Origin: Rhizodiscina lignyota
Taxonomy: Eukaryota
DNA: 64,000 nucleotides
Reading direction: 5' to 3'
Assembly: GCA_010015805.1 (NCBI GenBank)
Contig: ML978122.1
Location: 2,328,453-2,392,452 of the forward strand
Part shown: piece after piece, positions 10,376 to 48,524 of the stretch
Layout of the letters: the number at the start of each line of letters is the position of its first letter
How positions within the stretch are numbered: the stretch's first letter is position 1
Program-made: the position numbers and the translations under genes
Notes under the pieces: generated by a model
Told to the model about the DNA's origin: nothing
Seen by the model: only the letters and a program-made list of their open reading frames with translations
The model's database searches: none

Positions 10376-11574
10376 ATGCGTCCGATCACTGTGGCAACCG
10401 AAACCTTTGATTTTAGACCTACGCAGTTCGTCGACCGGCATGAGCGGCGCTCAGTTGCACTTGACTCACCTGCCAGAGGTAGCCAAGCCACAAACGGCGA
10501 GGGGCACAGTATGGTGTGTTGTCAGATTCCTGACCTTGCGAAGTTGCTCACCTTTTTAGGCTTTAGTGAGAACATCTGGCGAGAGCTCTGAAGGCCCGGA
10601 TCCGCCTGAGAGGATCTCCTCCAGCGTCGAACACCCTGCGCTAGAGAAACAACCGGAACCAAACAGGGAGGAGAGTGAGTAACATCTACAGAATTGAGAA
10701 ATATTACTGATTGCAGCGAAGACACCTATGCATTACCCCGAGATGGAGACAGCGGTGATAGGTGGCAGTCGCGATCAGATACTAAGCAGAAACTCTCAGA
10801 GAAGCGTAAGAGAACTTCGAGCCCCACATTCACAACACCACCGGATCGTGGATCACCCGATGCCTATCGAAAGCGCCATCGCATAGGCGCGGAGGATGAC
10901 CAAACGAACGGTGACGGAGAATTTATATGCACGATAGATCAAGACTGCAAAGATCTGACCTTCAACAGACGTTCTGAGTGGAAGTGAGTCTCCTCAAGTT
11001 CCGCCCCCTAAGCCGATATGAGCTTACAGTCTATAGGAGACACATCGAAAAGCATACACGGCCATATAAGTGCGAAGAGCCCAATTGCGATCGCCTGGAA
11101 GGATTTACTTACGGTAGTGGTTTGACTCGCCATCTGAGGGAAGTGCACGGAAAGGGTGCGAATCGCTCCTTTTTCTGTCCCGAGGCCAACTGCAAACGAC
11201 ACACAGGTCGACCTTTCTCCCGGACGCAGAACCGGGACGAGCATATTCGGAGAGTACACTCTGGGCCTAGCCTTTTCACCACATCAGCCTCTCGGAAGGA
11301 ATGGACGAAGGACAGCGCCAGGCCATCTTGCGTTGCTACATCGGCTGAAACGATAGAAGACTTAGCCCTACTTCCACAATCGGAGAATGCAGTGGTCATC
11401 GAATCTACAGCGTTTGGCAAGCAACGCAGTTCGATGCTACACATATCGCAGCAGATCCTGGTAGACTTGCGTGAGACTATCAGCAGCCAGCAGAAACAAG
11501 TTCGACTACAGGAGAAAGGGATTGACAGGCTAGAACAGCTACTATTGGAGACGCAGCTTGCTATTAAGAGATAA
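10376..11574 (+). CDS. C2H2 zinc-finger transcription factor (3 fingers, ZfpA-like), multi-exon; start uncertain
   Basis: FICTIDQDC..FNRRSEWK|RHIEKHTRPYKCEEPNC..GFTYGSGLTRHLREVH..FFCPEANCKR..FSRTQNRDEHIRRVH; intron GTGAGT at 10984; C-terminal coiled coil. Confidence 0.85.
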
Positions 11575-11843
11575 AAGCCAGCGAATGGGGATTAATGCGA
11601 TATCAGTCGCTTTAGAGAGTAATTATACTGGCTCTAGCCTCTGCCGTTTGGCAGTATCCATTATGCGCCTCAAGCACCCCTTACCCTCCTCATTGGGACC
11701 TTCATAGATGTCTTTAAGAAGCCCTTTATTTTCAATAATGTCTCAACGAACTACTTATCGGTCGCAGTAGACGGATCTCGGAAGCCTAGGAGGACGCATC
11801 CTTTACATGATCGATCGGTTTTCGATCTGAGGCATGACAAATT

Positions 11844-12775: not shown

Positions 12776-13204
12776 ATGTCACCACAACTGCACCTGCGAT
12801 ATGCCGATCCTGAGGCGTGCCCGCGATCAGCCCGGCGGCTGCCGCAAAGCCCATACCCTTGGACGTCGCAGCCTGCATCACCACTCTTTTCAGTCAAATT
12901 CTCTAAAATTAAAAAAGCCGTGCGCTTTAAAGACGAGGTAGAAATCCTCTTTCCTCCTACTCGGATCAACGAAAGGGCGTTAGCCGAGTCTGAAGTGGAT
13001 GCCATCGAAGCTTCTTGTTATAATCCGCGTTGTGGGAATCAATTGGAGTATTTAGTGCGCAGGCGCGGTTCTGGGCGAAAGAAATCATGGGAGCCGGCAT
13101 GTAATCTCGTAAATTGTGATGCCGCACTAGCCATCTTCCACTTGTGCAGCCCTACCAGTCCGGGCATGACTTGGGCTGCTTATAAGGTTCGGCGGGACAG
13201 GTGA
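12776..13204 (+). CDS. Small protein with degenerate chromodomain
   Basis: EVDAIEAS..LEYLVRRRGS..KSWEPACNLVNCDAALAIFH; aromatic-cage residues lost. Confidence 0.7.
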   Translation: MSPQLHLRYADPEACPRSARRLPQSPYPWTSQPASPLFSVKFSKIKKAVRFKDEVEILFPPTRINERALAESEVDAIEASCYNPRCGNQLEYLVRRRGSGRKKSWEPACNLVNCDAALAIFHLCSPTSPGMTWAAYKVRRDR

Positions 13205-14105
13205 GATTTACAAATGCTCCTAAGCGATAAGAGGCTGACCGTTTTATAAAGGCGTATGTAGAGCGTGCAAATGGCAGAAAGTGGTGAAAGAGCGACATGG
13301 AGCTGTAACGTCCATCCCTACGTCGCCGGACGCCCCCTGTTACCGGACAAAGTCCATTATTCGTACACATTAATTCTTCCCCTCGCGAGTCTATTAAGTT
13401 ATAGTCGGAATATAAATATTCTTTAGCTATTTATTAGTAGGTAACCGGTCTGCGATAAGAAAATTACCGCGGTCTTGATCATACTATTAATTATTCCATC
13501 GATGTCGTTAAGAGCCGCTCTAGTGAATTCCCCCTGCTCCATCACGACTATTAGCCTATCTGCGAATTCTGCGGCTATAGTACGAAGGTTTTATCAAGAG
13601 AGAATATCGCTATAACTTTTGAAGATAATAATTCATCGGAATTAAGTATTCCAAGTTTGACCGAGCGAAAGAAGGGGTTTGTTCGGCTTACAAGTCTTGG
13701 CATATGGATTTAGCTTGCTTACATTATGCTGTATTAATCTATGTATTGTTTTGACACTGGTTGTGGCGCATGCTAAGCCACTCTCGATTTGCCAATTCGC
13801 TTCGCCCGCATTCGCAGCTAGCTTTGCCGTTCATCACTGCACACCGAATACTGTATCATACACGGAGTCGAGACACAAACGGCCGATTCAGAATTGTCAA
13901 CACTAATTTGAACTTTTGGACTTCAATTCGTCAGTTCCGCTAGTTTCCAGTCCGCCGCCTCGCCTATGCCAGGTTACTGACGTCCCGTAGGAGCAGCAAA
14001 GCGTATACCGGCTTGATCCCTTCCACCCCTCTGGGCCGTATCCTACCATCGTAGCCGCCCTCCCCTCCTTCGGCGAATCTGAAGTCGATTTCATACAATG
14101 AGACA

Positions 14106-14996
14106 ATGAAGGATGTTACAATGCTCGGTCTCGCTCGACGTGCGCTAGGGTTTACTCGAAGTGTCGTGCTCTGGTTCACTGGAAATATTCGACGGCTTAC
14201 TGCGGCTGGAATAACCTGGTTTACTTATCGAGTCGACGCTCCTCTTGTAAAGTCTCTTGGAGACTTGCGGACGCTTTGCAACCACAACACGATCAATGAC
14301 GATGGCAATCTAGAGTTTTCGTACTCTACATTCTCCTTTGTCACCAAGGAACATACCGTCTATTGCGGCCGATCATTGATGAGGAAGCTTACTCTTGAAG
14401 TTGTCAATGAGAGCTTGAAACCGGTTGCCGATAAGGATGTGTATCCGGAAGCGCCGTCACATATAACAAGAGTTACGACGACAGAGAGCGGTTTCTTTAT
14501 CAAAGGGCCAGCGCTTACATTTTATGACGAACTCGAAGGCTCAAAGAAGATAGCACAGTCACTTCTACAAGAAGCTGAGATGCTAGAACGGATAGAGCAT
14601 AACCCCCACCCCAATCTTGTTCGGTATCACGGCTGCCAGGTCTATCGAGGTCGTATTGTAGGGCTGGTTTTGGAACGTTACCCTTGCACACTGGAGGAAC
14701 GTATGCGTAACGGTAGCGGCGATGTCGACTTGGAGTTAGGCTTTAATGGACTTAAGTCTGGAGTAATGCACCTCCATTCTCTTGGGCTTGCTCACAATGA
14801 CATTAAGGCAAGCAACATCATGGTTGGTGTGGACAACACATGGATTCTGGTAGATATGGGCTCTTGCCGGCCCTTCGGCGAAGATCTCATCATGGCAGGT
14901 AATCCACAATGGGAAACTTCATCACAACAGCATGACAAGGATGCACTGAGTGAACTCTGGATCTGGCTAACGGATCGCAAGCCAGCAGAGGTTTGA
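14106..14996 (+). CDS. Minimal protein kinase-like protein
   Basis: FFIKGP, E..LE....HPNLVRYHG, HNDIKASN, DMG; short C-lobe. Confidence 0.85.
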   Translation: MKDVTMLGLARRALGFTRSVVLWFTGNIRRLTAAGITWFTYRVDAPLVKSLGDLRTLCNHNTINDDGNLEFSYSTFSFVTKEHTVYCGRSLMRKLTLEVVNESLKPVADKDVYPEAPSHITRVTTTESGFFIKGPALTFYDELEGSKKIAQSLLQEAEMLERIEHNPHPNLVRYHGCQVYRGRIVGLVLERYPCTLEERMRNGSGDVDLELGFNGLKSGVMHLHSLGLAHNDIKASNIMVGVDNTWILVDMGSCRPFGEDLIMAGNPQWETSSQQHDKDALSELWIWLTDRKPAEV

Positions 14997-19754: not shown

Positions 19755-19758
19755 TACC

Positions 19759-20879
19759 CTAAGTATACCATATGCTCCGCTTCGGGTTCATCTTCCAGCG
19801 CATGTAAGTTGCCATCGGCACAATGTCTAAAACAGGGTCGAAAATTGACCTTTTCGGAATTTTATCCAGGTAGTTATGCTGCTTACTTCTCTTAGTTTGC
19901 TGATCTAGGGATCCGAGAGTTCTAACTCACGATTTTGGCAAATTTTTGCTCCACAGGTCGAGAAAGGCTATAAAGATCATCAAGAAAGTCCATCAGGACT
20001 TTGTTGCCGCTCCAGCGCTCAGGGTTAATCAGGCCAAAGACGCGATTTGCACGTCGCTCCTGGCGGACAAACTCAGCTGTGTGATGTGGGCTAATTGTGC
20101 CGTTCATACAGTCGATGAGGAGACGGCCTAAACCTTCAAGGTCGGTGTTTGGAGCAGGATTGTCGAATGACTCCGCAAGTTCGAAGTCCGCTTTTAAAGC
20201 GAGTTTAGTCACTACATGACTGATAGAAAGCCAAGCTGCTTACCGATGACGATATTAGCGTATGAGCTTCCAAATCTCACCGATATTGCCGAAACTCTTT
20301 GGTGCACGATGTTCTGCGAATGGAGATACTTGATCGCATCAAAGACCTGGGAAAGGGCAGTGAGTTTAGGTCTGAATGAGAGCCAAGCTGGACTCATACA
20401 TCGTACGCAATTGCTTGAATATGCTCTGAAGACAGGGGCACACAAAGTGCGTCCGCAAGCCGAAGTCTGCAGTACTCCAAACCGAGGTAGATCGTATTAT
20501 CTGCCAGGAATGATTCTTGGACTTGGATGATGTGAGCATGTCGCAAGTTGCAGAGCGCCTTCAATTCCTTCCTCCCACGACTTGCGCCGCACTTTTTAAA
20601 CATTCTTTTCACAGCACCATGTTCCTTTGAACAGAGCTCATATTCTACCTTATCCTGGGTGAGAGTCCCCCAATACTCGTAACCCTCCCATAGTTGTTCT
20701 CCGCCAACCTCTCGGAGGTACTGCTCTTCACCATATTTCCTAGGCGTTTGCAGATCAATCGAGAACGAGCGTTCCTTACGTTTTAAGTTTATAGCGGTTG
20801 GGATGGGAATGGTGGGCAAGCTCGGGTCTTGAGGTCTTGAAAGGCGTTTATGTGCATCTCCGAGCTCCTTGGTCTCCAT
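19759..20879 (-). CDS. Protein kinase-like protein (probable pseudokinase), 4 exons
   Basis: MFKK..ELKALCNLRHAHIIQV..LGLEYC..|VFDAIKYLHSQNIVHQRVSAISV..|ADFE; HRD replaced by HQR. Divergent from the ferric reductase. Confidence 0.75.
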
Positions 20880-21123
20880 AGTTGTGGGGATGCAGTAGGG
20901 TGTGTTATGGGAACATGGAACGTTAAATTTGCAGACGAACCACGGCATAAAGAGGCTTCTGGACTCGAGAACACGGATCCCGGCCCCTGGGCTGGGTTCT
21001 TGGATCGCGACGTTGTGGTATCCAGGGGCCAAGATCTGAGGTTAAGGTTCGACAAAATGCTTAAAAGAAATCGCACGTCGCAGCATTGCCGGAGCCAAAG
21101 TTAGAAACAAAGCACAAATCGCC

Positions 21124-22942
21124 ATGGCTAACCAACTAGCCATCATGATCTACATCTGGTGCTTGAGCGGAACATTTGCTAGCTTTATCGTGTGGCGCAT
21201 CTGGTTGCTCTTCAGTGACCAAGCCCGCAACTGGGTTTTGGCGGCTGTGAGGAAGAGATTGGTCTACAGTTTGGTCGCACGAAGACTTAAGGGATCATCC
21301 AGTCTCAGTTACGCCCACCTGACTTTTCTGCTCTTATATGTAGCTGCCAACCTAATAGCTCTTTTGATCGGCCTCCCATCAAGGAAAGAGCTTAGCCAGA
21401 GGTCGGCATCTTTGTTTGTCATCAATTCTATTCCTCTGTACCTAGGAGGAAGGACGAGCATTTTTGTCGATCGTGTACTCCAGATACCGCTGAACACTTA
21501 CTATCTGGCACATCGGTGGCTCGGTCGAATCTGTGCGTCACTGGCTGCAATTCATGTAGCCGTCTCCCTTTTCCGGACAAATGGAAAACTCGATGGTATC
21601 GACTCAGCGGTATGGATTCCGTAGCTAGGTGAAAGGAGTGATATTGACAGCTTGCAGTTGATTTCTGTCCTCGGGTCCTTAGCATTGCTCTCATTACTAC
21701 CGGTGCGTCGCCGACTCTATGAGGTATTTCGGGTGAGCCATTCGTGGCTTGCAATCGCACTCATTGGCCTGATATGGGTCCACATCGGCATCCGCCAGCG
21801 CCTCCCTGCAATTTGTCTTGGGATTGCGTCAGGGATCTGGATTTTCCAACAGCTCTTTCGTATTTTCTCCATAGCAAAGCGCAACAGAGGCCTGCGCGCT
21901 AAGAATACGACAGACGTTCAATACATTGAGGAATCGAGCGGCCTGGCGCAGACCATGAGGCTTAAGATCAATTTGAGGCGCCCTTGGAAGATCCAGCCTG
22001 GCCAATATGTGTATCTCACTATACCTGCAGTCGGAAGGCTGGGCGCAGGGTACTTGCAGGCCCATCCATATTTCGTAGCTTGGGCGACTGAGGGCGCCAC
22101 CAATTCGATAACGCTGCTGATCGAAAGCCGCCGGGGTTTCAGTCGAGATCTTCTCCTGAGTCGACAGACAGCACTCAGTGCCCTTATCGAAGGCCCGTAC
22201 GGGACAGGACTCCAGTTGGATGAATATGACACTGTTTTGCTCATGGCCAATGGCATTGGCATCTGTCCGCTCTTATTAGCAGCGAAATGTCTTGTTGAGG
22301 CTCATTTAAACAAGACAGCTCGAGTACGACGCCTTACTCTAGTATGGCTCTTGGACAGTCCGGGTGAGGGTGAACACAGTTTGTTGGCGAACGCACGAGC
22401 TAATCCTCTACGCAGGCCAGGAGGCGTTGGCGATAGATTTCCTTCACCAGCTCCTTGAGCAGGACGCGGTCCGTCGCATTCTGACCGTGCACCTATACGT
22501 CGACAATCCAGCCCAGGGACGCCCCGTTGCCAAAGGACCAATTCGACTGTTCAGGGTGAATCAGACACTCGATATGTCATGGATGATTGAGACTGAGTGG
22601 AGAGCTGAGGCTGGAAACATGGCGATTGCAGGTGAGACCTCCGAATCTTGCGTAGGCATGCCGGCTGACCGAAATTTAGCATGTGGTCCACCGGACTTCG
22701 AATATGCCATTAGACAGGCTCTGAGGCGAACCGCATCCGACATCAGGCTCGTGAATCTGGGGTTCGAGCCCGACGCACATCGAGCATCAGCTAAGCTAGC
22801 AGAACGCTTTGTGGTGAGGGCAGCCGGTGCGCAACCCGGTCGTAAATCAGAGAAGGAGACTGAAGCAGTCGGTCGTCGCAATGGTGAGATTGAGATAATC
22901 GAGCGTCGAAATGAGAGGGAACTTGTTATTACAAACGTTTAG
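21124..22942 (+). CDS. Ferric reductase / NADPH-oxidase-like transmembrane protein (Starship FRE), multi-exon
   Basis: Heme His in HRWLG..IH and YEVFRVSH..H; FAD motif PGQYVYL..AHPY; IEGPYG; ANGIGI; CGP. Confidence 0.92.
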
Positions 22943-26888: not shown

Positions 26889-27717
26889 ATGGCTCCTGCG
26901 CTGAAGACGCGGACCCCGTCGTGGAATGACAAGCTGAGGAAGCAGCGCCTAGAAGCATTCTTCAATAAGATTTACGACTTTGATTGGGGGCATATGTCGA
27001 CCTGGGACGTGAAAGTCAGTCTCCTCCTCGAAGGAAACGAAAAGTTTGGAGTGCACATGTATCAGAGCGACGAATCATTCAATCCTTTTAGAGACGATTA
27101 CGTTAGTAGCTGGTTCACTAGTCTTGGAGCATTTTTCTAACATTCCACAGCCCGGTATTGGGAGAGCTGACCGGAGGGATCGAAGCAACTGGTGGACCGC
27201 GCGTCACGAGCAAGAGAGAGCATCTGCGACAGATGATTCCGTCGCCGATTCGTCCGTGGCAGAGGCATCTGGGGTAGAAGTATCTGAGGCGGCTCTTGCC
27301 GTCCCACCGGCTGAGTGCTGGCCGTCCGCTCGACGACAATCATCGCCGATGCCGAACATGCAGACGCTTCGAAGAACCTCACCACATCCAAGCCGTCGAC
27401 TGCACGATGCCACTGCTGCCGCATCGGGATCGCAGGTCTCAGCACAACAAGCCGCCCCTCAGCAGGCAGTTTCTCCGCCGCAAAACCCTCAGCAAACGGC
27501 ACCGACTGAGCAATGGCAGAAGTTCGACGCTCTGGGATGGTCACCTACTTCTTCCTTCGGTGTAACACAGTCTACAGGTCAGTATGGGCTCATCATGCCG
27601 TCCGCAAGCGGTGGCATACACGCGAGCACGATCCCACCATATACTGGCAAGTATCCTGAGAAGGCCCACACACGTCTGCCGAGCGACACCATGAATGGGA
27701 TGGGGGTATACCAGTGA
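26889..27717 (+). CDS. Divergent MADS-box-like protein, 2 exons
   Basis: KLRKQRLEAFFNKIYDF..VKVSLLLE..HMYQSDESF; intron 27102-27150 (GTTAGT..CTAAC..CAG) joins in frame to a low-complexity exon. Confidence 0.55.
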
Positions 27718-29948: not shown

Positions 29949-30285
29949 ATGCACTCGGACTCTTGGCTCGACAAGCTCCGAGCAAAGAGACGGACTTTCC
30001 ATCGACGCCGACCGGCCGCTTTCAAAAAGATGAACGAACTTCACGTGTTAGGAGGGGTAGAGGTCTTCTTTCAAGTTCGTGGATATGGTAGCATATGGGA
30101 GTACAAGTCTTCAAATGAGACTCGTCCGCTCTCTCCCGAGCAGCTCGTTAGTCTTCTTTTGCGATCAATCGTCCTAATGATAACTTCTATAGAAAAACTC
30201 CTTTCCTCCTCCGATAGAGCTACGTCCAGAAATGTTCAAACTAAAGGGGTCAGAGCTCCTCCTCGATCTCGAACTCCGCGATTGA
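29949..30285 (+). CDS. Small MADS-box (SRF-like) protein, 2 exons
   Basis: KRRTFHRRRPAAFKKMNELHVLGGVEVFFQV..WEYKSS matches the MADS pattern; intron GTTAGT..TAG ending at 30192; overlaps the DUF3723 3' end. Confidence 0.7.
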
Positions 30286-33200
30286 CTGGGTTTGGAGTTG
30301 GACAACGGCATCAGATATTTCTTCGGAACCATTGGGCCTTGGCGTGTCGTCGCCGATCATCATCCTCGTTTCTGTCATTTGTTTGAGCTGCGAGTTTGCG
30401 TCTTCCTGTACCTCAGCCGCTATCATTAATGCAGTGCCTTGAAAAGCACCGTTGGCTGCCCACTGATCCATGACTGTTTTCTCTCCCGCAAAAATGATGT
30501 GGATCCGCTCCCATATCTCGATTAACTCCTCAAACTCGCCAGGGAATATCTTACCCGTCCAATCGCGGAATATAATGTGTTGTCCTTTTCGGAAAGCGTT
30601 TTCTAAAGATCGGCGTAGTTTCGGCGCAAAGTCCTCCAGATCATCCGTGATGAGCGGGACTGGAGGCTGCGCAGCATCGTAAACGAACCACATCGCCCAC
30701 CGACCACTGGAGGCAATCGATTTCTGAGTGCTCTTCAGAAATTCCAGTGTCGACTGACCCGACTGTGCGATGGTATTTACGAAGTACTTCGCACTGTCGA
30801 GGAGCTGTAGTTGTAGTTCCTGTTGGCTCAGTTGCATTCTACACATCTGTTCCATTGTTATGATGGCTGTCTCGTGAGCGCTTTGGGACGCTTGCTGACT
30901 CGCATTAATGACTCCCTGGGTGGTTTGCAGCGCTTGCTGGCCGATTTGAAAGACTTGCTCATTATTTTGTGCCGCGCGATTCATGAACTCTTCCTGCTTC
31001 TGTTCCTTCCAGTTACTCGCTTCGACCATCAGTTGTGTCTTCTGGATTTGTAATTGTAAGTCTCTCTGGTCAATGGCAACGTCCGCCTTTGCTTTGAGCA
31101 ATTCCAAATCTATTTGGAGTTGACGGATCTGTGCAGATTTCTCTGTATTTTCAAGGATAAGCTCCCTTTGCTTTACCGACAGCTCGTTCTTTTCGCCGTG
31201 GCCAGCTTCGAGCTGCGTGTTTAGTTCCACATTTTTCCTACGAAGGACATCTCTTTCTTTTCGTAGAGCTGAGTACTTCTTGGTAAGCTCGTCATTCTGT
31301 TGCTTTAGACGGTCTCTTTCGTCTTTTAACAGAGTATTGCTGTCACTGAGGGCCTTTTTCTGACGTTTCATGGCCTCTATATCGGCGCCTTCATCGAGTT
31401 TCCTTTTTCTCCCACTCTCGACAGTCTGCGTCAATTCGTTCAGTTTCACCGTCTGCTCCTCGAGCCTTTCTTTCAATTGCGTCTTTTCTGTTGCTAATGA
31501 TTGCAGCTCTTTCTCTTGATTCACATTTAGCCTGCGGAGGTTCTCACTTTCTTCCACCGCCTTCAGAGCTTTCGCTCCCATACTGCTTGCCTTTCCCTGC
31601 AGCTCTCGGTACGATGTCTTTTGGTGCTGAAGCTGCTCGTTAAGGTCTCTGTTCTCCGCTGCTAACGTGTCGCAGTACTGTTCTTGCTGCGGGTGCAACA
31701 CTTCGTCAACGCTCTGGCCTATGCGTTGTTCAATTATGGAAGCGGCATCTTCTAGAGGCTCAGTTGGACTCGAATCTGTTCGGCCTACAGGTCGAAGATC
31801 CTCAAGTGGCTGATCTGCGTCGAGCGCTGTGCCCAAGTAGGTTCTATACGTCGTATCCTCAGCTAAGAAAGTCCAAAAGATGTCTCTTTTCACGAAGAAC
31901 GGCGAAATGTCTCCGTCGGCTGAGTTGTCAGCCGCGCTGTCTGCAGCAAAGAAGCTTGGTATGAAGAGTTGCTTCTGGTCATACCAGTAGTCTTTCTCAA
32001 ATGGTCTTCCGTAGCGCCGTCCGCGCATCAGCCGTCCATCTATTCTCAAGCTCGGCGTTGCGTGTACTGCAGGTCCTACCTTAGCAGTGCATGAAATGTC
32101 CAATTTTGGCCGTGGCAAGTTGAACCCCAACTTCACAGCGAGATTGTAGAGTTCTAATTCGACGTGGGGAGTGGCAGCGGCGTGCATGGCTTGGTGCTTT
32201 CTATCCTCTTGACGGGGGTTGAGCTTGCCTAGTTGGGGAAAGTTGCGAAGACAGAACACCCACAGAGAGACCCAAGCCACCCATCGATCCGATTCAAATG
32301 TTTGCTGTCCGTATATTGCAAAACACCCGTCGCCAACTTCGATGAGACGATGTGCAGGCGGCCGATATCGGGCATAAAAACTCTGTCTGAGGGAGACTCG
32401 GTCCAGGTATCGGCGACCCCCTAGAAGATTCTGCAATGGTACGGTACAAAGCTCAAGAACCTTCTGGTTCTCAAAGAAGATCCTGAGACTCGGTATGAGG
32501 CAGGGCTTCGCACAGAGCCGCTCTAAGAGCTGTCTACGTACTTCTAGATCATCAATTGTCCGAAATATGCTTTTAGATGCCATCAGCTGCTGAAGTTGCA
32601 AGCGGTCAACTTTAGAGACCGCAGGAGCGAGCTGCTCGAGCTGGTCGACTGTTTCAACGTCCACGTCTTCAGGAGCGATGAGGGTTCCGATTACGTTGTC
32701 TTTCCAATAATTTCGTACATGGGTGAGGCCATTAACAAGCTCCTATATCGCATTTAGCTTGCTGCCGAAGATTCATCGATGCTCAACGAATACCTCATCG
32801 CATTTCAAGGAGTGATGCCTGTGGATCTGTCCGAGCATTATCCGCGGCCATAGCCCTGGAATGTCTACCAAGTCCAAAAGCAAATCTCGAGTCGCTTCAT
32901 CTCGCAGCAGTTGCCTCAGGTCATTCTCCTTAGTCTGTGACTTTTCTGACAATCGGCCCCACCACTTTTGTTCTTCGTCGACCTTCAGATCCCGCCTGTA
33001 GCGCAGGATTTTATATAATATGTCTCCATCGCTCGGCGGTTGTTCGTCGGCAGCATTCTCCAGAAAGCCGATAGCGATACGTTCAGGCAGATCTAATTCG
33101 GCCTTTCAGCTACGTCACTGGCCTTGGGGCCACGTGTCATACCTTGAAATAATCGAACCGTCCACCATTGCTCGTCATCCGCCGGATTCAGATGCTGTCT

Positions 33201-33545
33201 AGCAGCTTCGATGCGATGGAAGCCTTCCAAACACCAGGTTCCATCGATTACAAGTGGTGCCTTGTCGCTTGCAGCATGGAGATCATTCTCCGTTCCATTG
33301 ACCTTTCCAAGTGCTGCTGCTATTGCCCTGGCGGACACATTGGCGACGATGAAATTCTTGGTCACGTCGCGAAGACATCCCTGGCGCGAAAAGATTCTCT
33401 TCAGTCCATCTACCCTCGCTTGCGAGACTGGTCTGTGATGATGTCGGGCCCATGTATGGTTAAGATCTATGCTACTAAGCTTCACTCTCGCAATTCCGAC
33501 AAAGTACTTCGTGGCTTCCCGCTCGTGAGCCGGCGTAGATGCCAT
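30250..33545 (-). CDS. DUF3723 protein with long C-terminal coiled coil, multi-exon
   Basis: CLEGFHRIEAA..WWTVRLF, PSDGDIYYKILRY, LIPSLRIFFEN, LWVFCLRNFP, RRYGRP. Confidence 0.88.
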
Positions 33546-33845
33546 CTCCAAGAGGAGAGAAAGAAGTCAGCATCACAAGTCTCACCGAGGCCCAACCCCA
33601 TCTTCCCGCGTTGAAAACCCTCTGAGATTCACTCCACAATCCGGGATCTCGGAACGGGCCGAGGCGTCCAGATCTCAGATTGTGGCGCGCAGATCACAGC
33701 GCCTCAGGAGTCAGATCCAAGGATCCAGATCTCACGGCTCGGACCCGAGCAGCGCACTAAGAACGACTAGCATAATAAACCGTTCAAGACCCGATCGATC
33801 GGATGCAATAATCTCCTGAGCGTCGCCTCTCTAATATCCGTCGCT

Positions 33846-36800
33846 ATGGCTCTCACTTTCCCGTGGATGACGATAACGCACGAACTCGCCCAGACTCGCG
33901 TGACGAGGTATCCGCACGCTTTCCGCGCAGTGCAGACAAGATCACGTGACTTACCCCAGTTCGTCGTTCTGGTTGGGAAACAATCCAAGTCATCTATGCT
34001 CCGTACAATATTAGACACTCCAAATGATCCACTCCTGCGAGGCACGCACGGTCAGATCTATATCCGCGCTGATACAAGATCGAATCGACCTCTTTACTAC
34101 ATAGACTGTGAGGCTAATCTCTTCAAGCCGAAGCACGCAGACTCGGCAAAGGGCGTTGGCCCGTCCGACGTTACGAAAGTGAACTGGCTGAGTACGCAAC
34201 GGCTGTCAACTTGCTCATTTGGTAATCTCCTCTGTGCCGACGTACTCGCTCCTTTGTCGAGCTTAGTGTGCTATTTTGCCGCTGACCTTGGAGGCCTGCG
34301 TGGCGTTGCAAGACTGCTCGCCGAGCAGCTGCTGCATTCCAAAGGTACTGACCTACCGCCGGAAGCATCAGCAGCTATCCTTATTATTACAGACACCAGA
34401 TCAGCCACATTTGAGCAGGCTGTGGCGGAGTCAAGGATGGTGGAGTTGGTGAAGCATTTTATTGCTGCTGAAGCCCCTATTGAGCCGCAGCTAGCCGCGA
34501 AGGTCGATAGGCTGTGTAAGTCCTTGCGTGTGATCGGTTTCCATAACAGTCTCAACCTCCAGAAGCGTTGCAAAACATTCCGGAGCATCGTGTCAGCAGT
34601 ATCCGACGCGCAGGCCACTTCGCGCTCATTGTTATGTCTGGCATTTTCCGCGAGGCACGCAGAGGCCCTTTTCACTTCTCTCCTTCATCATTTTAGTACC
34701 CAGAACCAGGATCGGTTTTCTTTCGTAGATGCTTCAAGGCCGGATGGATTCAGCATCAGCCGTTTCCCTCAGCAGCTCCAAAAGTTACTCCAGCTGATGC
34801 CTTCAGAAGCTTACCTCTGGCATTCGGTCGTACCTTATGTGGCCAATGCTTTGCTTCTGGCGTCCTTTCCTCCAGGAAGCCACTGTGAGTGGATACTTGT
34901 ATATTTATTCATGGCCAACCTAATTTTGGACCTAGATTTCTCGGCAGCGACGTTGTTCCGACATCTCTATTACGAGGTGTGTCGGGATGCAATTCAAAAC
35001 TATACTCATCGCATTGATATTCAAGAGAAATTCCTGTCCGATCTCGAACATGAGCTGGAACGACAATTGAGCGAACTACAGTCCCAACAGGGACGCACTG
35101 CACTGCACTATACTAAGACTCTGCGCCACCTCAACAGCGAAATCCCGATCCCTAAAAGCCACGAGCTCTGTTCTTGTCTAATGCGCATGCCAGAGCGCGA
35201 TTTAAGTTGTGGGCACTCGTTCTGTGAAACCTGTTTGCAACTAATCGCCCAGAAATGCAACATGCGGAGATATCATTACACCATTACCGGGTGTCCGGCC
35301 TGCGGTGAAGAACAGAAAGAGCCTTGTTTCAGATTGTTGCCGCCAACAGCCGGGGTTAGGTTGCTGAGCATCGACGGTGGGGGCGTTCGGGGGGTGATCC
35401 CGCTCATGGTCCTGAGCAGCGTAGAAAAAAGTCTCTCGTATTTACAATGCCCTCTGCGAGATTATTTCGATCTTATTTTGGGATCTTCAGCTGGTAAGTG
35501 GAATGACCGTGTGCAGTGTCTTCCAAAACTGATGAGATCGCAGGAGGCGTAGTCTCCATAGGGATCGGGGTCAAGCAATGGTCTACCGATGATTGCCTAG
35601 GCAACTTCGAGAAGCTCGTCTACAATCTCTTCTCTCGAAAGTCCAGCAGTTACGCATCGTTCCACCTCGTCCGAGACTTCGTGCAACTGTGTCTAAGCGA
35701 TTGCCAGTACGATTCTGAACTAGTCAACACCGCATTTAGTAATACCTTCGGCCGCGGTCTTTCTCTTTTTAGCACCCTGAGCACTTGTTCAAAGGTTGGG
35801 GTCACTACGACTAGGGTTCGGGATGCTATGCCTTGTTTGATCACAAACTATAATGGAACCGACCCGCGGCAGGATGTTGGTGAGTGTTCGAGCCATATCC
35901 GGATTTGTGTTTGCTGATGCAGCCAGGCTATCATATCGTCCGTGCAGAGAAACCCCAGGAGGACATACAGGTTGCCGATGCGTCAGTATCATGCCCCTGT
36001 TCCTGACGTACACTAACAATCGGACAGGGCAATCTGCACCTCCGCGGCACCCTGGTAGAGTAGCAGTTCATATATCCATGGGTTTAGAAAGGCTGATTTG
36101 TTGCCAGGTTCTTCAAACCGAAAGCAGTTCCTAGGCTAGACACATACGAGGACGGGAGCCTTCAGGAAAACAATCCTATAGCGATTGCACTTTCTGAATT
36201 TAGGACCATTTGGCCCAACCGGGGAGAACATCCTGACATTGGGCTCTCTCTTGGGACAGGGTGGGCGAGGAACGGGGCACCCCGAGGCGGCAGCGACTTA
36301 CCCGTCAGGGACAGAATGCCTACTCGCCTGGCAAGGAATTTCAAGCAAAGCCTGAATGGACAGAAGATCTGGCGGAGGTTCTTTAACACCTTGCCCAACA
36401 GTGCCCGGCATCGGTATCATCGCTTGGAGCCTATGTTCGGTAAGGAGGAGCCGCGCATAGACGAGCTGACGGCTCTCGAAGATTTAAAATCGTTTATTGA
36501 AGACTGGATGAGCTCAAACGAGTGGGTACAAGAGGTAAGATTGGTCCTCGACGGTCTGATTGCCTCGATATTCTACTTCGAGCTTGACGCCCTTCCTGAA
36601 TTCATCGATGGCCGCTATCACGTCTCTGGCCAGATACTCTGCCGACTTAATTTGTCGCGGCTAGGTCAGCAAAATCTGTACGAAATGCTAAGAAGTACAA
36701 AGTCCTACTTCTTAGTAAACGGAGACCCTAAATCCTGTCTTGAGGCCAAATTGCGAAATCGTCTTCCGTTTCGGAAACGCATCGAGTTCTCCTGTGAAGA

Positions 36801-36984
36801 CGGAGCGGTCGCGATATCTATTGGGGGAATCACTTCACGCTCATGTTCGATAAGCGGTATGCCTAGGGCTATAGACGACCTTATCCGTTGTCAGAAGCTT
36901 GATGCCCCTTTCGGCACAGTAGAACACGACACTATGGAAAAGCCACTTCCTTCGATACCTACGAAGAGAAAGGTCTGTGGATGA
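33846..36984 (+). CDS. Patatin-like phospholipase with RING-like zinc finger (Starship PLP), multi-exon
   Basis: C..CGHSFCETC..CPAC; LLSIDGGGVRG; FDLILGSSAG nucleophile motif; DGSLQENNP; IASIFYFEL. Divergent from DUF3723. Confidence 0.92.
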
Positions 36985-37096: not shown

Positions 37097-38042
37097 TTAA
37101 AGAAGTTGTCCAGCTGCCTCCTCGTTTCCGGGCGTTGCAGAACGCTTCGAGTAATATTCAGCAAGTAGGTCATTGCAGTTGTCCACATTTTCGGCGGGCT
37201 CCCATGTGCGCTCGTCTGACTCCCAATGGACAAAATAATACAAGGCCGTCCGGCTCCCTTCTATACGAATGTCCGAATCAAGAATAGCCCGTACACCATA
37301 AGCCGGGGGGGAGTCAGCTCTACACGTTCGCCGCAAGCGACCCTGACGCTTTGCTCTCTGATCATAGGGTTTCTGTCTCTGTGCGTGCCTGTTGTTGCTG
37401 GGTTTTGGTAGATGCTTCAGCCGTGGGTTCGCAGAAGCAACAATTTCTGATCCGTCATCCTGCAACGAATCATGTTGTGGTATTGGAGACGCGTGGACTG
37501 GGGCGTCATGGACGCTTAGTGAGTACGACTCGAGGCCCTCTTGCCATGAATGTAGTGACGGTGAAGGTGCGATTGCGCATAAGAAATCCTCAATACCCTC
37601 AATATACGGCGAAGAGATGAAGACTGGACTCGAGCTCTGTGTTCGGCTTCCTTCGGCGTTTGAGATGTTCGATGAGACTGCTGGCCGGAAGGAATAGTCA
37701 GAGCTGTCACCCATAGATGCGCTAGGAGGCTGTGTAGACGTAGGCGTATTTTGCGGTAATTTGGGTATCTCTGTGGCGTGGCAGACTGTGACGGTTGGAT
37801 CGCAGTGACGCTCCTCTTCCCTGTGTGCAGAGGTCGAAATGGCGACTGTCGTAGGGGTTGGAGCTGTCGGCTGGAAATGAACATTTTGAGGCCCCCCAAG
37901 AATATAACATTTGAAATCTTCGATCGCAACTCTTGCACTTCGTGATGGTACGTTCTCTGGAACAGGCCAGCCCACGTAATACCACGTCTGGCCACCCTCG
38001 TAGGTAATTTCATGGGAAACGAATTGAATTTGATTAGACATG
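37097..38042 (-). CDS. Chromodomain protein (C-terminal chromo)
   Basis: YGVRAILDS..YYFVHWESDERTWEPAENVDNCNDLLAEYY; likely start MSNQIQ. Confidence 0.85.
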
Positions 38043-42438: not shown

Positions 42439-43167
42439 ATGGACAACAATACGTTATCCCATCACGCTGTTCCTCCTCTCTCTTTTCAATGTATCGCACC
42501 AGATGGCTACAAGTGGAACTTCATAATGTGGCTAGACCCGAACTAATCTGCTGATTCTACTTCTCTCAATCAGGAGCAACAATGCGATTTTGAACAGTTC
42601 ACACAGGGTCTCCAGCAAGCCGCTAATCAGACAAAATTCAAAGAATCGGCTATTCGGATGCGTTTTTGGCTTATCCAACAACCCTAGGCCTAGGCATTCA
42701 TTCAATCAACTCGGCGGAATTGGACGAGCTGTTTACAGAGAGCAACAACTCCGAAGGGAGATTGTCGGTTCCTTGTGGTCCCGCAACCCCACCGGACACC
42801 AACGTTTCCCCCTCTTACACCCAAAGCACAGCTGTCAATTTCACGCCCAAACAGCACCGAAGGCGCATCTACCGCTGAAGGGGCCGAAGCTCCCGTATCG
42901 ACGACTGACCGTGATGGAATGGGAAGTAAAAGCAATTCTAGGATCTCGCGTAGGAAAGGATATACAGACAGAGAGCTTATTTTACCGTATACTATGGGAA
43001 GGTGGAGAGACACTTGGGAAGCGGCCGAAAACTTAACTAATTCTGATATATCGCTGGCTGAGTATCATGAGAAGAACCTCCAAGCTCCTGCTCGACGTTT
43101 ATTTCCGCTACGGCCATTTGAAGATAGTCTATTCAGCGAGTGGCTAAGCTCGTGGTCGAGATCGTAG
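42439..43167 (+). pseudogene. Chromodomain gene pseudogene
   Basis: Stop at 42544 and several frameshifts; chromo split across frames: WEVKAILGS..FYRILWEGG / DTWEAAENLTNSDISLAEYH. Confidence 0.75.
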
Positions 43168-43968
43168 ATAACTATCTCGACTTTTCGTGTTATTGCTATT
43201 TCTACTTAAGGCTAAGGTCAGGCGCCGCGCATTGCTCCTTCATTGTTACCCAGTCCATGATTGTGGGTGTTGGGCACGTGACTGATTGGAGGGATTTGCG
43301 CAACGGTCAATGTGTCCCTCCTGTGCTACTAATGGAATTGTTTTCTTCGCTGCTTAATTCCATAAAGACACTCTCCCCCTATTTGATGATTTGATTAGAA
43401 GGCAGTGTATAAGGCGTTGTGCGTTCGAAGGTAGGCCCAGTGGAGGAGAAGATAGCGGCCGGAGTGCGTACAGAGAGCGTTGACGTAGTTCGCTGATAGC
43501 GGCGCCGAAATTTGAAAGTCCAGCCAAGCCTGTGGCTGGTAGACATGTGACTTCAGCCATCTGGGCGAGAACGGCTAGATGTAAAAAGACCTCCGCTGAC
43601 TAATATTCATCGCGACAACAAATCTCTGCTACGAATCTATTATCTTGAGTCTGAAGCCGTTTAATCATCAAATTTTCTATACCTTTTTGGCCGTTATCAG
43701 CAGCTCACCAACGGCACCAAATACGAGTATTTAAGATACCTGCGCTGCGGTTAAGGTTTTTCCCCTCTCTCCAAGCTACTCAGCTGCTTTGCTTTGTGGA
43801 TCGCTAACGTCGCCCCAGCCAACAGGTCTATCGAGTCACTATCGTACGAACGGCCTCCCAGTCGACGGCTAATACGAGTGAACGTCGGAACAACGTTTCA
43901 TCTACGACCGCCCACACGTCCGATGAAAAGCACTGAAGTCCTGTACTGCCGAAAACCGCGTCTCTCCT

Positions 43969-44712
43969 ATGCCCTCTATCTCGCAACAAACTATTATATC
44001 CGTTGGTATCTTCGCTGTTGTACATCGGCTCAATGACACAACGGTGAGAAAGTTGCCTCGAACCGATGATCTAGAAAACCTAGCTGGAAACATCCAAGCC
44101 ACGCGTAATGAGGCATACATCTATACCCTACTCGGAGATGACCCGCTTATTGCGAATTGTCTATCGCGCAGTAAAACCGAGGACTATGTCGATCTCCAAT
44201 ATTATGCGAACGGCACGCTTCCAGACTACATTGACAAGAATAAAAACAATATATCAGACAAACTCCGGGCACAATGGAGCTGGCAGGTTATTAAAGCGGT
44301 AGCGCGAATTCACGAGCTTGGGATTATTCACGGAGATCTTGCCTTGAGGCAGTATTTGCTTGATGACAGTCTTAACGCTCGCCTGAGCGACTTTTGCGGC
44401 TCCGGATATCCTGGACAGAGGGCACTGGCTATCGAAGGCTCTAGTCACTGCTTACCAAGAGACTTTGATCGACCTAGCACAACAGAATCAGACCTGTTTG
44501 CACTCGGGTCTACCCTCTATGAGCTTTGGTCTGGCGAAACTCCCTTCTGCACGCTCAACGATCAGGAGATTGAGACACGTTATATGCAAGCGGACTTCGC
44601 TGATGTTACAGGCATTCACTGCGGTCATATCATCCTTTGTTGTTGGAGGCGAGAGTTCTCATCTGCAGACGAAGTGCTTTCCCAGTACAACAAATTGTCA
44701 TTAGACCTTTAA
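43969..44712 (+). CDS. Minimal protein kinase
   Basis: SVGIFAVV, VRKLP, HGDLALRQYLL, DFCGS, SDLFALGSTLYE. Confidence 0.9.
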   Translation: MPSISQQTIISVGIFAVVHRLNDTTVRKLPRTDDLENLAGNIQATRNEAYIYTLLGDDPLIANCLSRSKTEDYVDLQYYANGTLPDYIDKNKNNISDKLRAQWSWQVIKAVARIHELGIIHGDLALRQYLLDDSLNARLSDFCGSGYPGQRALAIEGSSHCLPRDFDRPSTTESDLFALGSTLYELWSGETPFCTLNDQEIETRYMQADFADVTGIHCGHIILCCWRREFSSADEVLSQYNKLSLDL

Positions 44713-45026: not shown

Positions 45027-45776
45027 GATGCTGTGCTACCTGAAAATTGTTAGAAAGTCGCTATCTGCTGGTTTCCCGATGCTCACTACCAGTACGGTTC
45101 GGATTCGTAGAAGGGAAATTCTCTGTCTCACGATTGAGGACTGTGTGCGCTTATGACGTTGATGTTCGAATTGCCTCAGCTCGGTATGGACGTGAGTTAT
45201 GATAGAGCGGCGCCTGAGTAGAAGCAGGAATGGTCGGAAACCGACCTCATATCTTATCCTCTGTATGTGGGATAGATAGGCCTGCGGCCAATCGCTGCTT
45301 GCAACGTGTTTCTGCACGATATGCGGCCTGGACAAACTATCATGAACTCACAAAATCATGGTGTATGTAGGAGATGCATTAGCGGTTGATGCAAGACATT
45401 CGGCTAAGTGCGTTTCCGTTAGCGACGCAGATGACACTTTCCTATTTGCCCATTGAGGAGAAGTGCTCCCACGAAACGCTGATCGTCGACCGGCGAACAT
45501 CATTATCCTGGATGCTTGGGCACTCGTGCTTCGACGCATTCTCAGATTAACTCGAGTTATACCGCGTACGAGCACGTCCGGCGGACCATAAGGCTTGATC
45601 GGGACGCGACGATGAACAACAGCACTGTAGTTAAACTTAACAATATATGCTCACAGCTCTATTATACAAGGAGAAATGTCACATCTGCCCAGCCTCGCTA
45701 CACCTCATTTGGAAGACCGAATGCAAATTGCGCTGAGTCAAGTTATACAAGTAAACGCTTGATTGTCTAGTCAGAG

Positions 45777-48524
45777 TTAGCGCTGGATCGGGTAGGAAAG
45801 ACCGCGACGTACCTTCAGATTCGCTTTAAATCTTTTGATAACATCTTCACCGCCGAGCTCATCAATTTGCCCCTGTTTGGCTGCATCAGCGAAGAGCGTT
45901 TCAACAGCCGCAACGTATTGAGGCGCTGTATCCTTCATATCCTCGTTTGTAGTATTTGGATGAGTTAGTTCTTCGCACATTACTTCGCTCCACCGGTCAG
46001 TATCGGACCAGAATAGGATATGGCCAGCGATCGCAAGAGTCTGAGTATTGTCGTCTCTGAAAACACAGTGCACCAGGCCGGAGGGTATCAAGATAGTCTG
46101 ACCACGATGTAGTATTTTATACCGCCACTCTCCGCCCGTGAAACCGTAGGGGTCATCCATCCATTCCTTGAGGACTTGCTCTGTCGGGCGTGACAACCAC
46201 GCAAAGCCTATCTGGCCCTCTTGTGCAGTGATCCACGTGGCAAGTGCGTTTGCATCTCGGTGGGGTCCGGTGTTGTATCCAAACGCTAATAACAGAAACT
46301 CAAGTACTTCCATCCATTCATTCCATATCTCGGTCGATGCTTTCGGCCGCTCGACAGAATCGCCGGCTAAAATAATATCGCGCATGCGATGCAAAAGCTG
46401 AGGATTTTCGCCCATTAAAAAGCTCGGGAATACAGATGGAAGAGGACTCTGGACGTCGAGGAGGTTGTAGGTGTCCTTGACAGGGCGCTGCTTTCTGAGG
46501 AATAGCTCTAGTACATCCTGAAGTGCCCACGGCTTAGCCGAATGTTCAGACACTCTTCGGGAAGATACCTGAACAGACACAGTTCGACGAAGCTTGTATG
46601 AGATGCGGCGGAGGAGTTGCTCTATAGGTCGAGACCCCGTAGCCCATTGAAAATTTTGCCGATCTTCGGTGAAAAGTGGGATGTCAAGTCCGCCTTTGTC
46701 CACAGCAGCCTTAGCTTCATCAGGGCCACAGATCAATGCTTCGTCTGCCTGAGGAGATCGGCTCTTCGTTAAGATTTCAAGGATCTGTTTGTCTGTCCTC
46801 TCACCATGAGAATTGTGCACCCTTTTGTGCTGCAGATTTTGCTTCAACTGAACAATGATTTGCTCGCGAAATGCATCGTCGGCACATTGTAGAAACGTAG
46901 GCGCATTTCTCAGAAATCCAGAAGGCCCCGGGCTTAGATACACTGGTCTTTGGCGCTTCGCTTCGGTTATATCCGACATTGAGCTTGAGCGTGGACGTTT
47001 ATGAGGTGCGTCTTCGGTACAGTTTGCTGAAAGGCGGGTTGTAGTTTGTATTCCTGTAGCAGACGCAACTTCCAACATTATGTTGGAAAAGAGAAGTAGA
47101 TGGTCACGACAGAGATAGACTCGCAGTTCTGCGTACTTTTTGGCAACCATTGCGCGATGAGAGTGGTCTTCGCTGTCGTTCAAGACAGATATAAAGGCAT
47201 CGGGAACCTGGCTGGGACAACATCGACCTTTGTCTATCTTACCACCTTTCTCCCTGGCTTTTGGCTTTCTCGCTCTTGTCCCTTCATCGTACGATGGTAG
47301 CGCCTTCTGTTGAGATCGCTTTGAGCGCCGTAAGGCTCGCTCTTCGTCTGTAACACCGGGATATGGGTATGCAATGGAACATTCTTCGTCATCCTCAACA
47401 TTCTCGTCACCGGGTTGCTTCGTGTCGCCAGCCCGCTCGTTGTCGCCAGCCCGCTCGTTGTCGCCAGCCCGCTCGTTGTCGCCAGTCCGTATTGTGTGAG
47501 TCGGCAAATGAGCGCCTTCCGTCTGATTCTCAGTTGTGTTGCCCATTCCCTCTACGCGTTCGGAATTCGAGCCTTCTTGCTGGCCAAGGTCCTGTATGGT
47601 ATGCTCCAACTCCGCATTTACCGGATCCGTAGTATCACTGAAGCTTGGAGCGTCATTCGATTTTGGTGGGCTATTGTCAGCCACTGGTGGCGGTGGATCG
47701 GGGGTTTTGGCAAACTGTTCACGTACGAGTACGCCAAACTTGTCGAAACCATAGCCTTTGGGGAGTTCGCCGCGCGTCAACTTCCGAAACGAAAGTTCTT
47801 TTTTCTCTGGATCTTTCGGCATAATGAACGAATCCGCACCATTCCAGTCTCTGACAGTGTGTAGGATATGCGGTTCAAGGGGATCGACTCCCATAGTGAC
47901 GTAGCGCGCTTGGGGAAGTTGCATCTTACGTCGTTGTACCTGGTTCGCCATGATGACAAAGTTCTCCCAATTGCGGACCTTGTTTGCAGTAGTGCAAAGC
48001 TCTTTACAGCGCTTAAGACCCCGATACACCCATCCATAATGCTTGATTTTGTCCCAGCCCCAAAATGTGCTAACTGTCTTGAGCACCGAGACAGACTCTA
48101 AGACGTACGTTGAGTTTTCCTCCAGAACACCAACGAAGCGGTTCCAATTTGCTTCATAATCTGCTGTTAGATTCTTTGGGCGACCTCCTTCATGCTTTCT
48201 TCTGTATTTGTAACCTTCACATTCCGCTGACATGACCTGGTCATATATCATGATTAACGTCACAGCGGCATCGTGACTTCGCACTAATTGGTCGAGCTTC
48301 TCTTCGCAGATCGTAACTTTCGCGATCTCTGTTTCGCACGCCCGGAGTCGCGCTACGAAGGTTTCCATTTCTTTCGTATCAGTATGGTTCAAAACTTCGG
48401 TAAAGCAGACGTCGAGCTCAGTTAACTGCTCGGGAGGGGAAGGGGGACAGGAGCGCGGCCGGCTACTGAGAAGAGAAGCAGACAATCCATTTTCACAACC
48501 CTCAGAAGGGCGGCCGTCATCCAT
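45777..48524 (-). CDS. JmjC/cupin domain protein (possible extra 3' exon)
   Basis: NLLDVQSP, GPHRDANALATW, IPSGLVHCV (HxD...H triad), TNED; 18-bp GDNERA repeats at about 47420-47485. Confidence 0.85.
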   Translation of the reverse strand: MDDGRPSEGCENGLSASLLSSRPRSCPPSPPEQLTELDVCFTEVLNHTDTKEMETFVARLRACETEIAKVTICEEKLDQLVRSHDAAVTLIMIYDQVMSAECEGYKYRRKHEGGRPKNLTADYEANWNRFVGVLEENSTYVLESVSVLKTVSTFWGWDKIKHYGWVYRGLKRCKELCTTANKVRNWENFVIMANQVQRRKMQLPQARYVTMGVDPLEPHILHTVRDWNGADSFIMPKDPEKKELSFRKLTRGELPKGYGFDKFGVLVREQFAKTPDPPPPVADNSPPKSNDAPSFSDTTDPVNAELEHTIQDLGQQEGSNSERVEGMGNTTENQTEGAHLPTHTIRTGDNERAGDNERAGDNERAGDTKQPGDENVEDDEECSIAYPYPGVTDEERALRRSKRSQQKALPSYDEGTRARKPKAREKGGKIDKGRCCPSQVPDAFISVLNDSEDHSHRAMVAKKYAELRVYLCRDHLLLFSNIMLEVASATGIQTTTRLSANCTEDAPHKRPRSSSMSDITEAKRQRPVYLSPGPSGFLRNAPTFLQCADDAFREQIIVQLKQNLQHKRVHNSHGERTDKQILEILTKSRSPQADEALICGPDEAKAAVDKGGLDIPLFTEDRQNFQWATGSRPIEQLLRRISYKLRRTVSVQVSSRRVSEHSAKPWALQDVLELFLRKQRPVKDTYNLLDVQSPLPSVFPSFLMGENPQLLHRMRDIILAGDSVERPKASTEIWNEWMEVLEFLLLAFGYNTGPHRDANALATWITAQEGQIGFAWLSRPTEQVLKEWMDDPYGFTGGEWRYKILHRGQTILIPSGLVHCVFRDDNTQTLAIAGHILFWSDTDRWSEVMCEELTHPNTTNEDMKDTAPQYVAAVETLFADAAKQGQIDELGGEDVIKRFKANLKVRRGLSYPIQR

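Follow-up and report, generated by a model that had tools for sequence, protein, structure and literature searches.

Starships are giant transposons that carry large blocks of genes from one fungus to another, pathogens and food moulds among them. Chromatin-type domains have been described on several of them. Some Enterprise captains are reported to carry CHROMO domains, and in Sanctuary the final 3.1 kb, which are conserved, include a chromodomain gene (ROU50, the end gene). In 23% of non-redundant elements, a MYB/SANT gene is reported at the edge that faces away from the captain, with a Harbinger-like helper role proposed by the authors. Other transposons offer precedents for countering silencing: VANC of the Arabidopsis VANDAL elements is described as a transposon-encoded anti-silencing factor, and the TET/JBP dioxygenases of fungal KDZ transposons as transposon-borne erasers. 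A 2026 preprint describes Arwing-family Starships that escape heterochromatin in Pyricularia. Its authors call it unclear whether these elements do so by a mechanism of their own, and in its available part there is no mention of JmjC, jumonji, cupin, chromodomain or MADS. Here we analyze a 64,000-nucleotide stretch of Rhizodiscina lignyota (GenBank assembly GCA_010015805.1, contig ML978122.1; hereafter the window) that holds a Starship-like element and several chromatin-type genes, among them an intact gene for a JmjC protein.

A Starship-like element with chromatin-type genes

Judged from its sequence, the region is a Starship-like giant fungal transposon carrying chromatin-type genes as cargo. 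The Starship captain, a gene for a DUF3435 tyrosine recombinase, is located near one end of the element at 58768..61052 on the minus strand (ATG at 61052, stop at 58768). It is multi-exon and apparently intact, and three exon-sized open reading frames (ORFs) at 58771-60584(-) cover DUF3435 profile positions 2-417 with 55, 64 and 135 bits in Pfam. From ~61.2 kb, ~200 bp upstream of the captain ATG, GC content drops from ~0.5 to 0.26-0.32. A DUF3435 captain near one end, beside a GC break, is as expected of a Starship. All chromatin-type candidates are to the left of this captain, and their neighbors include DUF3723, patatin-like and ferric-reductase genes.

A sequence-only reading of the window had proposed that these candidates form an element-encoded anti-silencing set. 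In such a set the JmjC protein would erase repressive methyl-lysine marks from the element, chromodomain proteins would read these marks and guide the eraser, MADS-like and C2H2 proteins would activate the element's genes, and a RING protein with SUMO-interaction motifs would remove silencing factors. The observations behind this proposal were partly confirmed and the interpretation was partly supported. The individual genes mostly stood up, as described below, but the cooperating reader, eraser and degrader set did not. The set is not supported: two of the readers are broken and the third is an orphan, the genes lie scattered, and no such set recurs in the 597 published Starships. We consider a coordinated set of this kind to be distinctly improbable.

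On balance, we think it probable that the chromatin-type genes are independent, fast-evolving accessory cargo on a Starship-like element and not one coordinated system. The JmjC enzyme gene would then be an intact member of a patchy, Pezizomycotina-wide family with a divergent KDM2/7-like domain that rides on the element. Its fellow passengers would be an orphan protein whose chromodomain is intact, two chromodomain copies in decay, and small DNA-binding proteins of the MADS-like and C2H2 kinds. The candidate genes span 38 kb and occupy both strands, with kinase, ferric-reductase, DUF3723, patatin and folylpolyglutamate-synthase-like genes interspersed. The analysis shows which domains are present, whether each gene is whole or decayed, how large the JmjC family is and that JmjC and MADS-like genes recur in published Starships. 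We infer the lack of cooperation among the parts, and likewise the activity and nuclear role of the enzyme.

The JmjC gene and its cofactor site

The JmjC gene (45777..48524, minus strand) is intact, a single open frame from ATG to TAA that encodes 915 aa and has full-length relatives (P0001 and P0002). The protein comprises an all-helical, confidently modelled N-terminal domain (~aa 33-230), a disordered middle and a C-terminal JmjC domain (~aa 600-915). Standard domain scans miss this family. The 915-aa frame has no Pfam match, and a scan of its last 307 residues returned no JmjC at E<=10 and only Cupin_1 at E 0.16; the gathering score of Pfam JmjC (PF02373) is not reached by this protein. 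When the last 316 residues were searched against 1.84 billion representatives, 360 clusters matched at E<=1e-3 and 284 at E<=1e-10. We aligned 46 relatives of this C-terminal 316-aa piece (alignment A2), and residue numbers below follow the piece. Pfam recognizes JmjC in three of the 46 members of A2 (E<=0.01, best 1.9e-5), JmjC_2 in one and Cupin_2 in one.

Profile and structure comparisons place the domain more clearly. The A2 profile matched ceKDM7A (4.2e-11), KDM2A (1.5e-9), KDM7A (1e-8), PHF8 (1.1e-8) and PHF2 (2e-8) in the PDB, with matches to structures of the KDM7A/KDM2A/PHF8/PHF2 group spanning 4e-11 to 3e-8. The AlphaFold (AF2) model of the JmjC domain has a predicted local distance difference test score (pLDDT) of 91.4 and a predicted template-modelling score (pTM) of 0.90. 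Its top Foldseek matches are ceKDM7A, PHF2, KDM7A, PHF8 and KDM2A (E 1e-14 to 1e-11, query template-modelling scores, TMq, of 0.57-0.69), and JMJD6, JMJD5, UTY and TYW5 rank below these KDM2/7-type enzymes. The AF2 model and Foldseek together thus point to the double-stranded beta-helix of the JmjC fold. In a protein atlas, the clusters nearest to the domain are named JmjC (0.98).

The iron-binding triad HxD..H is present, as the sequence-only reading had noted, and profile and fold bear out that call. H156 is kept in 44/46 relatives, D158 in 43/46 and H220 in 44/46, and these residues align with the metal triad of KDM7A and KDM2A. T153 is also kept in 43/46. The cofactor site differs. I173 aligns with the lysine of the GEK/GGK motif in KDM7A/KDM2A, and this column contains no lysine in any of the 46 relatives, being mostly F, I or V. 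We take that lysine, on the strand after HxD, to be the anchor of the 2-oxoglutarate C5-carboxylate. R224, four residues past the distal histidine, is invariant (46/46), and its conservation suggests that it may replace the canonical lysine in holding 2-oxoglutarate.

The closest characterized relatives are the JHDM1-type enzymes KDM7A, PHF8, PHF2 and KDM2A. With these, the window's protein shares the motifs G..T..H.D and G....P.G..H.V and an aligned HxD..H. However, it is only ~15% identical to them and is missed by Pfam JmjC. It lacks the lysine of GEK/GGK, has the invariant arginine after the distal histidine, and has histidine for the asparagine of GGNFL. It also has no PHD, CXXC or F-box region and carries a helical N-terminal domain instead. 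These data indicate a genuine JmjC fold of the KDM2/7 type whose cofactor pocket is altered.

Family-wide conservation of the metal triad makes it probable that the JmjC protein works as an Fe(II)-dependent oxygenase. Its structural neighbors suggest, as our best guess, that it acts on methyl-lysine in a histone or in some other protein of the nucleus. An element-encoded anti-silencing role would fit a fold that is nearest to H3K9/K27/K36/H4K20 demethylases and a conserved metal triad. The absence of the canonical 2-oxoglutarate lysine speaks against it, as does the lack of a recognizable targeting module on the protein. A wide fold search with the N-terminal 600 aa gave helical hairpins only (best Z 6.5; model pLDDT 69) and assigned no known fold, and neither Pfam nor this search of a partly confident model recognized a reader or DNA-binding module.

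The family is large and, as far as is visible, not specific to elements. Of 30 clusters looked up, 24 contain a single sequence at 90% identity, and those members that are named belong to Sordariomycetes and Dothideomycetes. This distribution, widespread in Pezizomycotina and mostly in single copies per species cluster, would also fit a role directed at the host. In that case the JmjC protein and the transcription factors would alter the expression of host genes or of other cargo, for example in stress or virulence, and would be kept for the benefit of the host. Adaptive cargo has been reported on Starships, and the signalling-type genes described below lie alongside. Several neighbors, though, are fragments or pseudogenes, and we regard a host-directed role as unlikely.

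Two further features of the DNA surround the JmjC gene. A perfect palindrome at 48639-48694 (28+28 nt, no spacer) is located 115 nt upstream of its ATG, and a second one lies at 53031-53090 (29+29 nt, 2-nt spacer); both are far beyond chance. In addition, the gene lies between the arms of an inverted repeat (45377-45497 and 56024-56162; ~120-140 nt, 88-90% complementary, one 17-nt indel). The 10.8-kb block inside this repeat holds the JmjC gene, a BCS1-like AAA ATPase gene, several ORFs of no assigned kind and a TPR gene, and has no transposase domain. The block at 45377-56162 may be a nested non-autonomous element, or its arms may be two oppositely oriented copies of a small repeat.

Chromodomain, DNA-binding and neighboring genes

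The window contains three chromodomain-like sequences, and the sequence-only reading gave a fair account of each. The intact one is the C-terminal domain of an orphan 314-aa protein (37097..38041, minus strand). In the ORF at 37100-38272(-), Pfam Chromo (PF00385) matches residues 325-375 with E 4.5e-9 and 36.5 bits, above the cutoff of 25.1, and the 314-aa model at 37100-38041(-) is identical to the annotated protein P0004. A word-based search of 5.8 billion proteins, limited by the sensitivity and length window of the tool, found no relative besides P0004. The first-cage Y and the W are kept and the third cage position, placed by eye, is D; the cage positions themselves are assigned from what we take to be those of HP1.

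The second sequence is the degenerate C-terminus of a 142-aa ORF at 12776..13204(+). Its Pfam Chromo match is weak (E 0.0095, 16.3 bits, under the 25.1 cutoff), and it resembles the intact domain with a tblastn E of 0.008. At the Y and W positions of the intact copy it has S and R (alignment A4), in line with the earlier view that its cage is lost. The third sequence, at 42914..43164(+), has no Pfam match. Its halves lie in overlapping frames (42926-43009 and 42988-43092, from translations and tblastn), and a fair reading is that it is a relic with a frameshift inside the domain, as a pseudogene would be. The three sequences are weakly alike (35-39% identity over <=38 residues, E 0.008). They do not belong to chromovirus polyproteins, since no reverse transcriptase or integrase was found nearby in Pfam scans of the ORFs. 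The state of these readers counts against an anti-silencing set: one of three is intact, and it sits on an orphan protein and appears to lack the third cage aromatic.

The proposed DNA-binding genes fared unevenly. Of the two MADS-like genes that had been claimed, the first (29949..30386, plus strand, adjoining the 3' end of the DUF3723 gene) is borderline. Its ORF at 29949-30383(+) matches Pfam SRF-TF (PF00319) over profile positions 6-35 of 48 with E 1.4e-5 and 24.9 bits against a cutoff of 26. In the atlas it sits nearest to short proteins of ascomycetes that bear the name 'putative MADS-box domain-containing protein' (0.88), which we treat as a lead only, and a word-based search, limited by tool sensitivity and length window, found no relative. 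The second (26889..27140, plus strand) is very doubtful. It has no Pfam match, and the sole likeness of the ORF at 26889-27137(+) is a 10-residue match to the first at E 0.02.

The candidate C2H2 factor is a multi-exon gene at 10376..11574(+) that needs two introns. We obtained 120 stop-free spliced models, and the 12 examined share three atypical C..C..H..H fingers and a canonical HTRPYKC linker in translation. The finger motifs and linker are thus seen in the spliced models, but Pfam zf-C2H2 is not significant (E 1.5). The upstream gene that had been likened to a SUMO-targeted ubiquitin ligase (STUbL) is also present. At 656..2021(+), it encodes three VIDLT repeats resembling SUMO-interaction motifs together with a RING-H2 domain (Pfam zf-RING_2 E 7.6e-10), the predicted combination of a STUbL, and it holds a 45-nt tandem repeat. 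However, it is 8.4 kb upstream of the other candidates, past an AT-rich block with an N run at 3399-3798, and may be outside the element; this too counts against an anti-silencing set.

For the domain content of the window, the Pfam search covered 136 stop-to-stop ORFs of >=95 aa, all but six of the 142 present; those six overlap the N run. Of the 348 short ORFs at 9-49 kb, 66 that are nested in the long DUF3723, patatin and JmjC frames were excluded from the scan. No further chromatin domain was found among the other ORFs scanned at 9-49 kb, and no Myb/SANT domain among the window ORFs scanned. Three auxiliary genes typical of Starships were recognized. The DUF3723 gene (30253..33566, minus strand) is covered by three ORF pieces that match Pfam DUF3723, the best at E 6e-47. 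The ferric reductase (FRE) gene (21046..22939, plus strand) gives Ferric_reduct in the ORF at 21046-22455, together with FAD_binding_8. The patatin-like (PLP) gene (33771..36981, plus strand) contains a RING/zinc-finger-like stretch; Pfam Patatin matches its ORF at 33771-35549(+) with E 2.7e-5, under the Pfam cutoff, and the ORFs downstream probably belong to the same gene.

Other genes of the window include three protein-kinase-like ORFs at 14055-14993(+), 20397-21041(-) and 43927-44709(+), each covering only part of the kinase profile. A Mur_ligase_M fragment resembling folylpolyglutamate synthase (40300-41172, minus strand) is an odd metabolic piece in the stretch that separates the chromodomain relic from the intact chromodomain gene. 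An 818-aa open frame at 5893-8346(+) has no Pfam match and contains a 27-nt unit repeated ~5x at 7445-7580. The kinase-like and other signalling-type genes are the kind of company that host-directed cargo might keep. Strong selection on the whole block is argued against because several neighboring genes are fragments or pseudogenes.

The captain end of the element is flanked at 61200-62400 by AT-rich sequence (GC 0.26-0.32) with many TA-rich words typical of repeats mutated by repeat-induced point mutation (RIP). GC stays near 0.5 within the element, beside this RIP-like flank, and an element that is not AT-rich in such a setting would be in keeping with an anti-silencing function. At the far end, we found no inverted copy of the captain-side terminus within the window apart from one 17-nt exact match, between 61186-61202 and 20971-20987. 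The latter lies in a kinase-like ORF adjoining the ferric-reductase gene. By our own estimate ~1e-3 such matches are expected by chance for this query. The match cannot be extended beyond the 17 nt, and it may mark an element end or have nothing to do with one. The window has no near match to the last 15-20 bases of the captain-side terminus, and near that terminus we did not see the terminal and direct repeats that a published Arwing element has. No 5S rRNA or other Rfam family was found within the window. Because the far end was not found, the 10-21 kb block and the RING gene at 656-2021 may lie either inside or outside the element.

Comparison with published Starships and known systems

To place these genes among known elements, we used Table S7 of Gluck-Thaler and Vogan 2024, the gene list of 597 Starships. 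Whole-word counts gave 38 occurrences of JmjC, 85 of Chromo, 116 of SRF-TF and 152 of Ferric_reduct. All 38 JmjC and all 85 Chromo occurrences were checked, as were 36 of SRF-TF, the remainder all being Aspergillus rows without JmjC. The survey rests on annotation, by which the window's own JmjC would escape Pfam. The 38 rows of JmjC-annotated genes, most of them 2.5-3.9 kb, fall in 33/597 elements. These are mostly from Fusarium and also from Colletotrichum, Ilyonectria, Lasiodiplodia, Macrophomina and Pyricularia, plus one fonped1 element. According to sheet S9 and the family table of the main text, 15 of the 33 belong to Arwing (fam09), two to fam10 and 16 to families 1-8. The 15 Arwing elements fall in only four of the 15 Arwing naves. 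Accessions from the 30 clusters of the window's JmjC family match none of the JmjC genes in Table S7. The main text of Gluck-Thaler and Vogan 2024 makes no mention of JmjC, histone, SRF, MADS or transcription factor. A full-text literature search for 'Starships' and 'JmjC' returned no paper, and one for JmjC on Fusarium accessory regions returned nothing relevant.

Most of the 85 Chromo occurrences are of the retroelement type. Stand-alone Chromo genes occur in Blastomyces, Coccidioides, Histoplasma, Paracoccidioides, Pyricularia and one more genome, and genes that combine Chromo with Myb_DNA-bind_6 occur on Starships of Aspergillus fumigatus, F. oxysporum and Histoplasma. MADS-like genes are common, with 98 of the 116 SRF-TF occurrences in Aspergillus rows. 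One small Aspergillus Starship (aspasp9_s00556, fam05) has two divergent SRF-TF mini-genes and a Peptidase_C48 gene (Ulp1-type SUMO protease) beside its captain.

These counts bear on the idea that the chromodomain, C2H2 and MADS-like proteins are transposition helpers, which would bind chromatin or the element ends and assist the captain while the JmjC gene is unrelated cargo. The Chromo+Myb genes, the frequency of MADS-like genes, the chromodomain gene at the end of Sanctuary, the CHROMO domains of some Enterprise captains and the reported MYB/SANT edge genes with their proposed Harbinger-like role are all consistent with it. Compared with these cases, the window shares small chromodomain-bearing genes on a Starship. 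However, its captain has no chromodomain, its chromodomain genes are internal as far as is visible, two of the three domains are defective and no Myb/SANT domain is present among the scanned ORFs. Its chromodomain proteins are also poorly conserved, and the element's far end, against which the positions of the genes would be judged, was not located. We doubt that a helper role accounts for these genes.

Co-occurrence of the families across Starships, which the sequence-only reading had suggested as a check, was partly run on this table. Single parts recur, but JmjC and Chromo annotations occur together in 0/597 elements. By annotation, conserved co-occurrence of the parts in related elements was not seen. 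The window, which has both JmjC and Chromo, differs in this from all 597 annotated elements, and the absence of the pair there weighs against an anti-silencing set. Only six elements, all of them Arwing elements of F. oxysporum and drawn from two naves, have both JmjC and SRF-TF. In one of these, fusoxy2_s05890, a kinase gene is followed by JmjC, two genes, ferric reductase, SRF-TF, one gene, DUF3723, NLR and, last, the captain. Elements of this type share with the window the kinds of genes, the size of the JmjC gene and the captain-bearing setting. The order of ferric reductase, MADS-like gene, DUF3723 and a minus-strand captain at the right end is also shared with fusoxy2_s05890.

Several observations weigh against independent cargo. 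JmjC is annotated in 15/63 Arwing elements and in 18/534 others (odds ratio 9, p 1e-7 in a naive Fisher test that ignores relatedness). Arwing, the family with this over-representation, is the one reported to be euchromatic in Pyricularia in the 2026 preprint, whose authors ask if it has a means of evading silencing. In the six F. oxysporum Arwing elements, the JmjC and MADS-like genes are 7-14 kb apart, and the order of ferric reductase, MADS-like gene and DUF3723 recurs in the window. Chromodomain genes hold conserved places in some Starships, as the Sanctuary end gene, the Enterprise captains and the Chromo+Myb genes illustrate, and three chromodomain-like sequences within 30 kb are not explained by chance. 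On these grounds a role directed at the element may still be considered.

In its strongest form, such a role would mean that some Starships, above all Arwing, carry their own histone-mark eraser. This would be a KDM2/7-like JmjC protein with arginine for lysine, recruited by element-encoded MADS-like, C2H2 or chromodomain proteins and stripping H3K9/H3K27 methylation in cis. We give this proposal little credence. If it were true, erasure in cis would explain how elements keep their euchromatic state, their expression and their mobility once they have reached a new genome. A JmjC protein that acts on the chromatin of its own element would then be the first case of anti-silencing by a giant eukaryotic transposon. 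Otherwise, the family would still be an uncharacterized, widespread fungal JmjC lineage with an altered cofactor site. Either way, the window provides an intact and well-modelled example of a JmjC gene of a family overlooked by standard domain scans. JmjC-annotated and MADS-like genes recur in Arwing; a same-family link between the window's gene and the published JmjC genes is a candidate only. The gene is a concrete candidate for how some Starships stay euchromatic.

As with VANC and TET/JBP, the window would then show a mobile element that brings along its own means of reversing or preventing a silencing mark. The likeness to TET/JBP extends to the enzyme class, since TET/JBP enzymes are Fe(II)/2-oxoglutarate dioxygenases, as the JmjC protein would be. 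In contrast, VANC and TET/JBP are reported to act on DNA methylation and to be tied to transposase lineages, whereas the window's candidate, whose tie to its element would be only statistical, would act on methyl-lysine in proteins.

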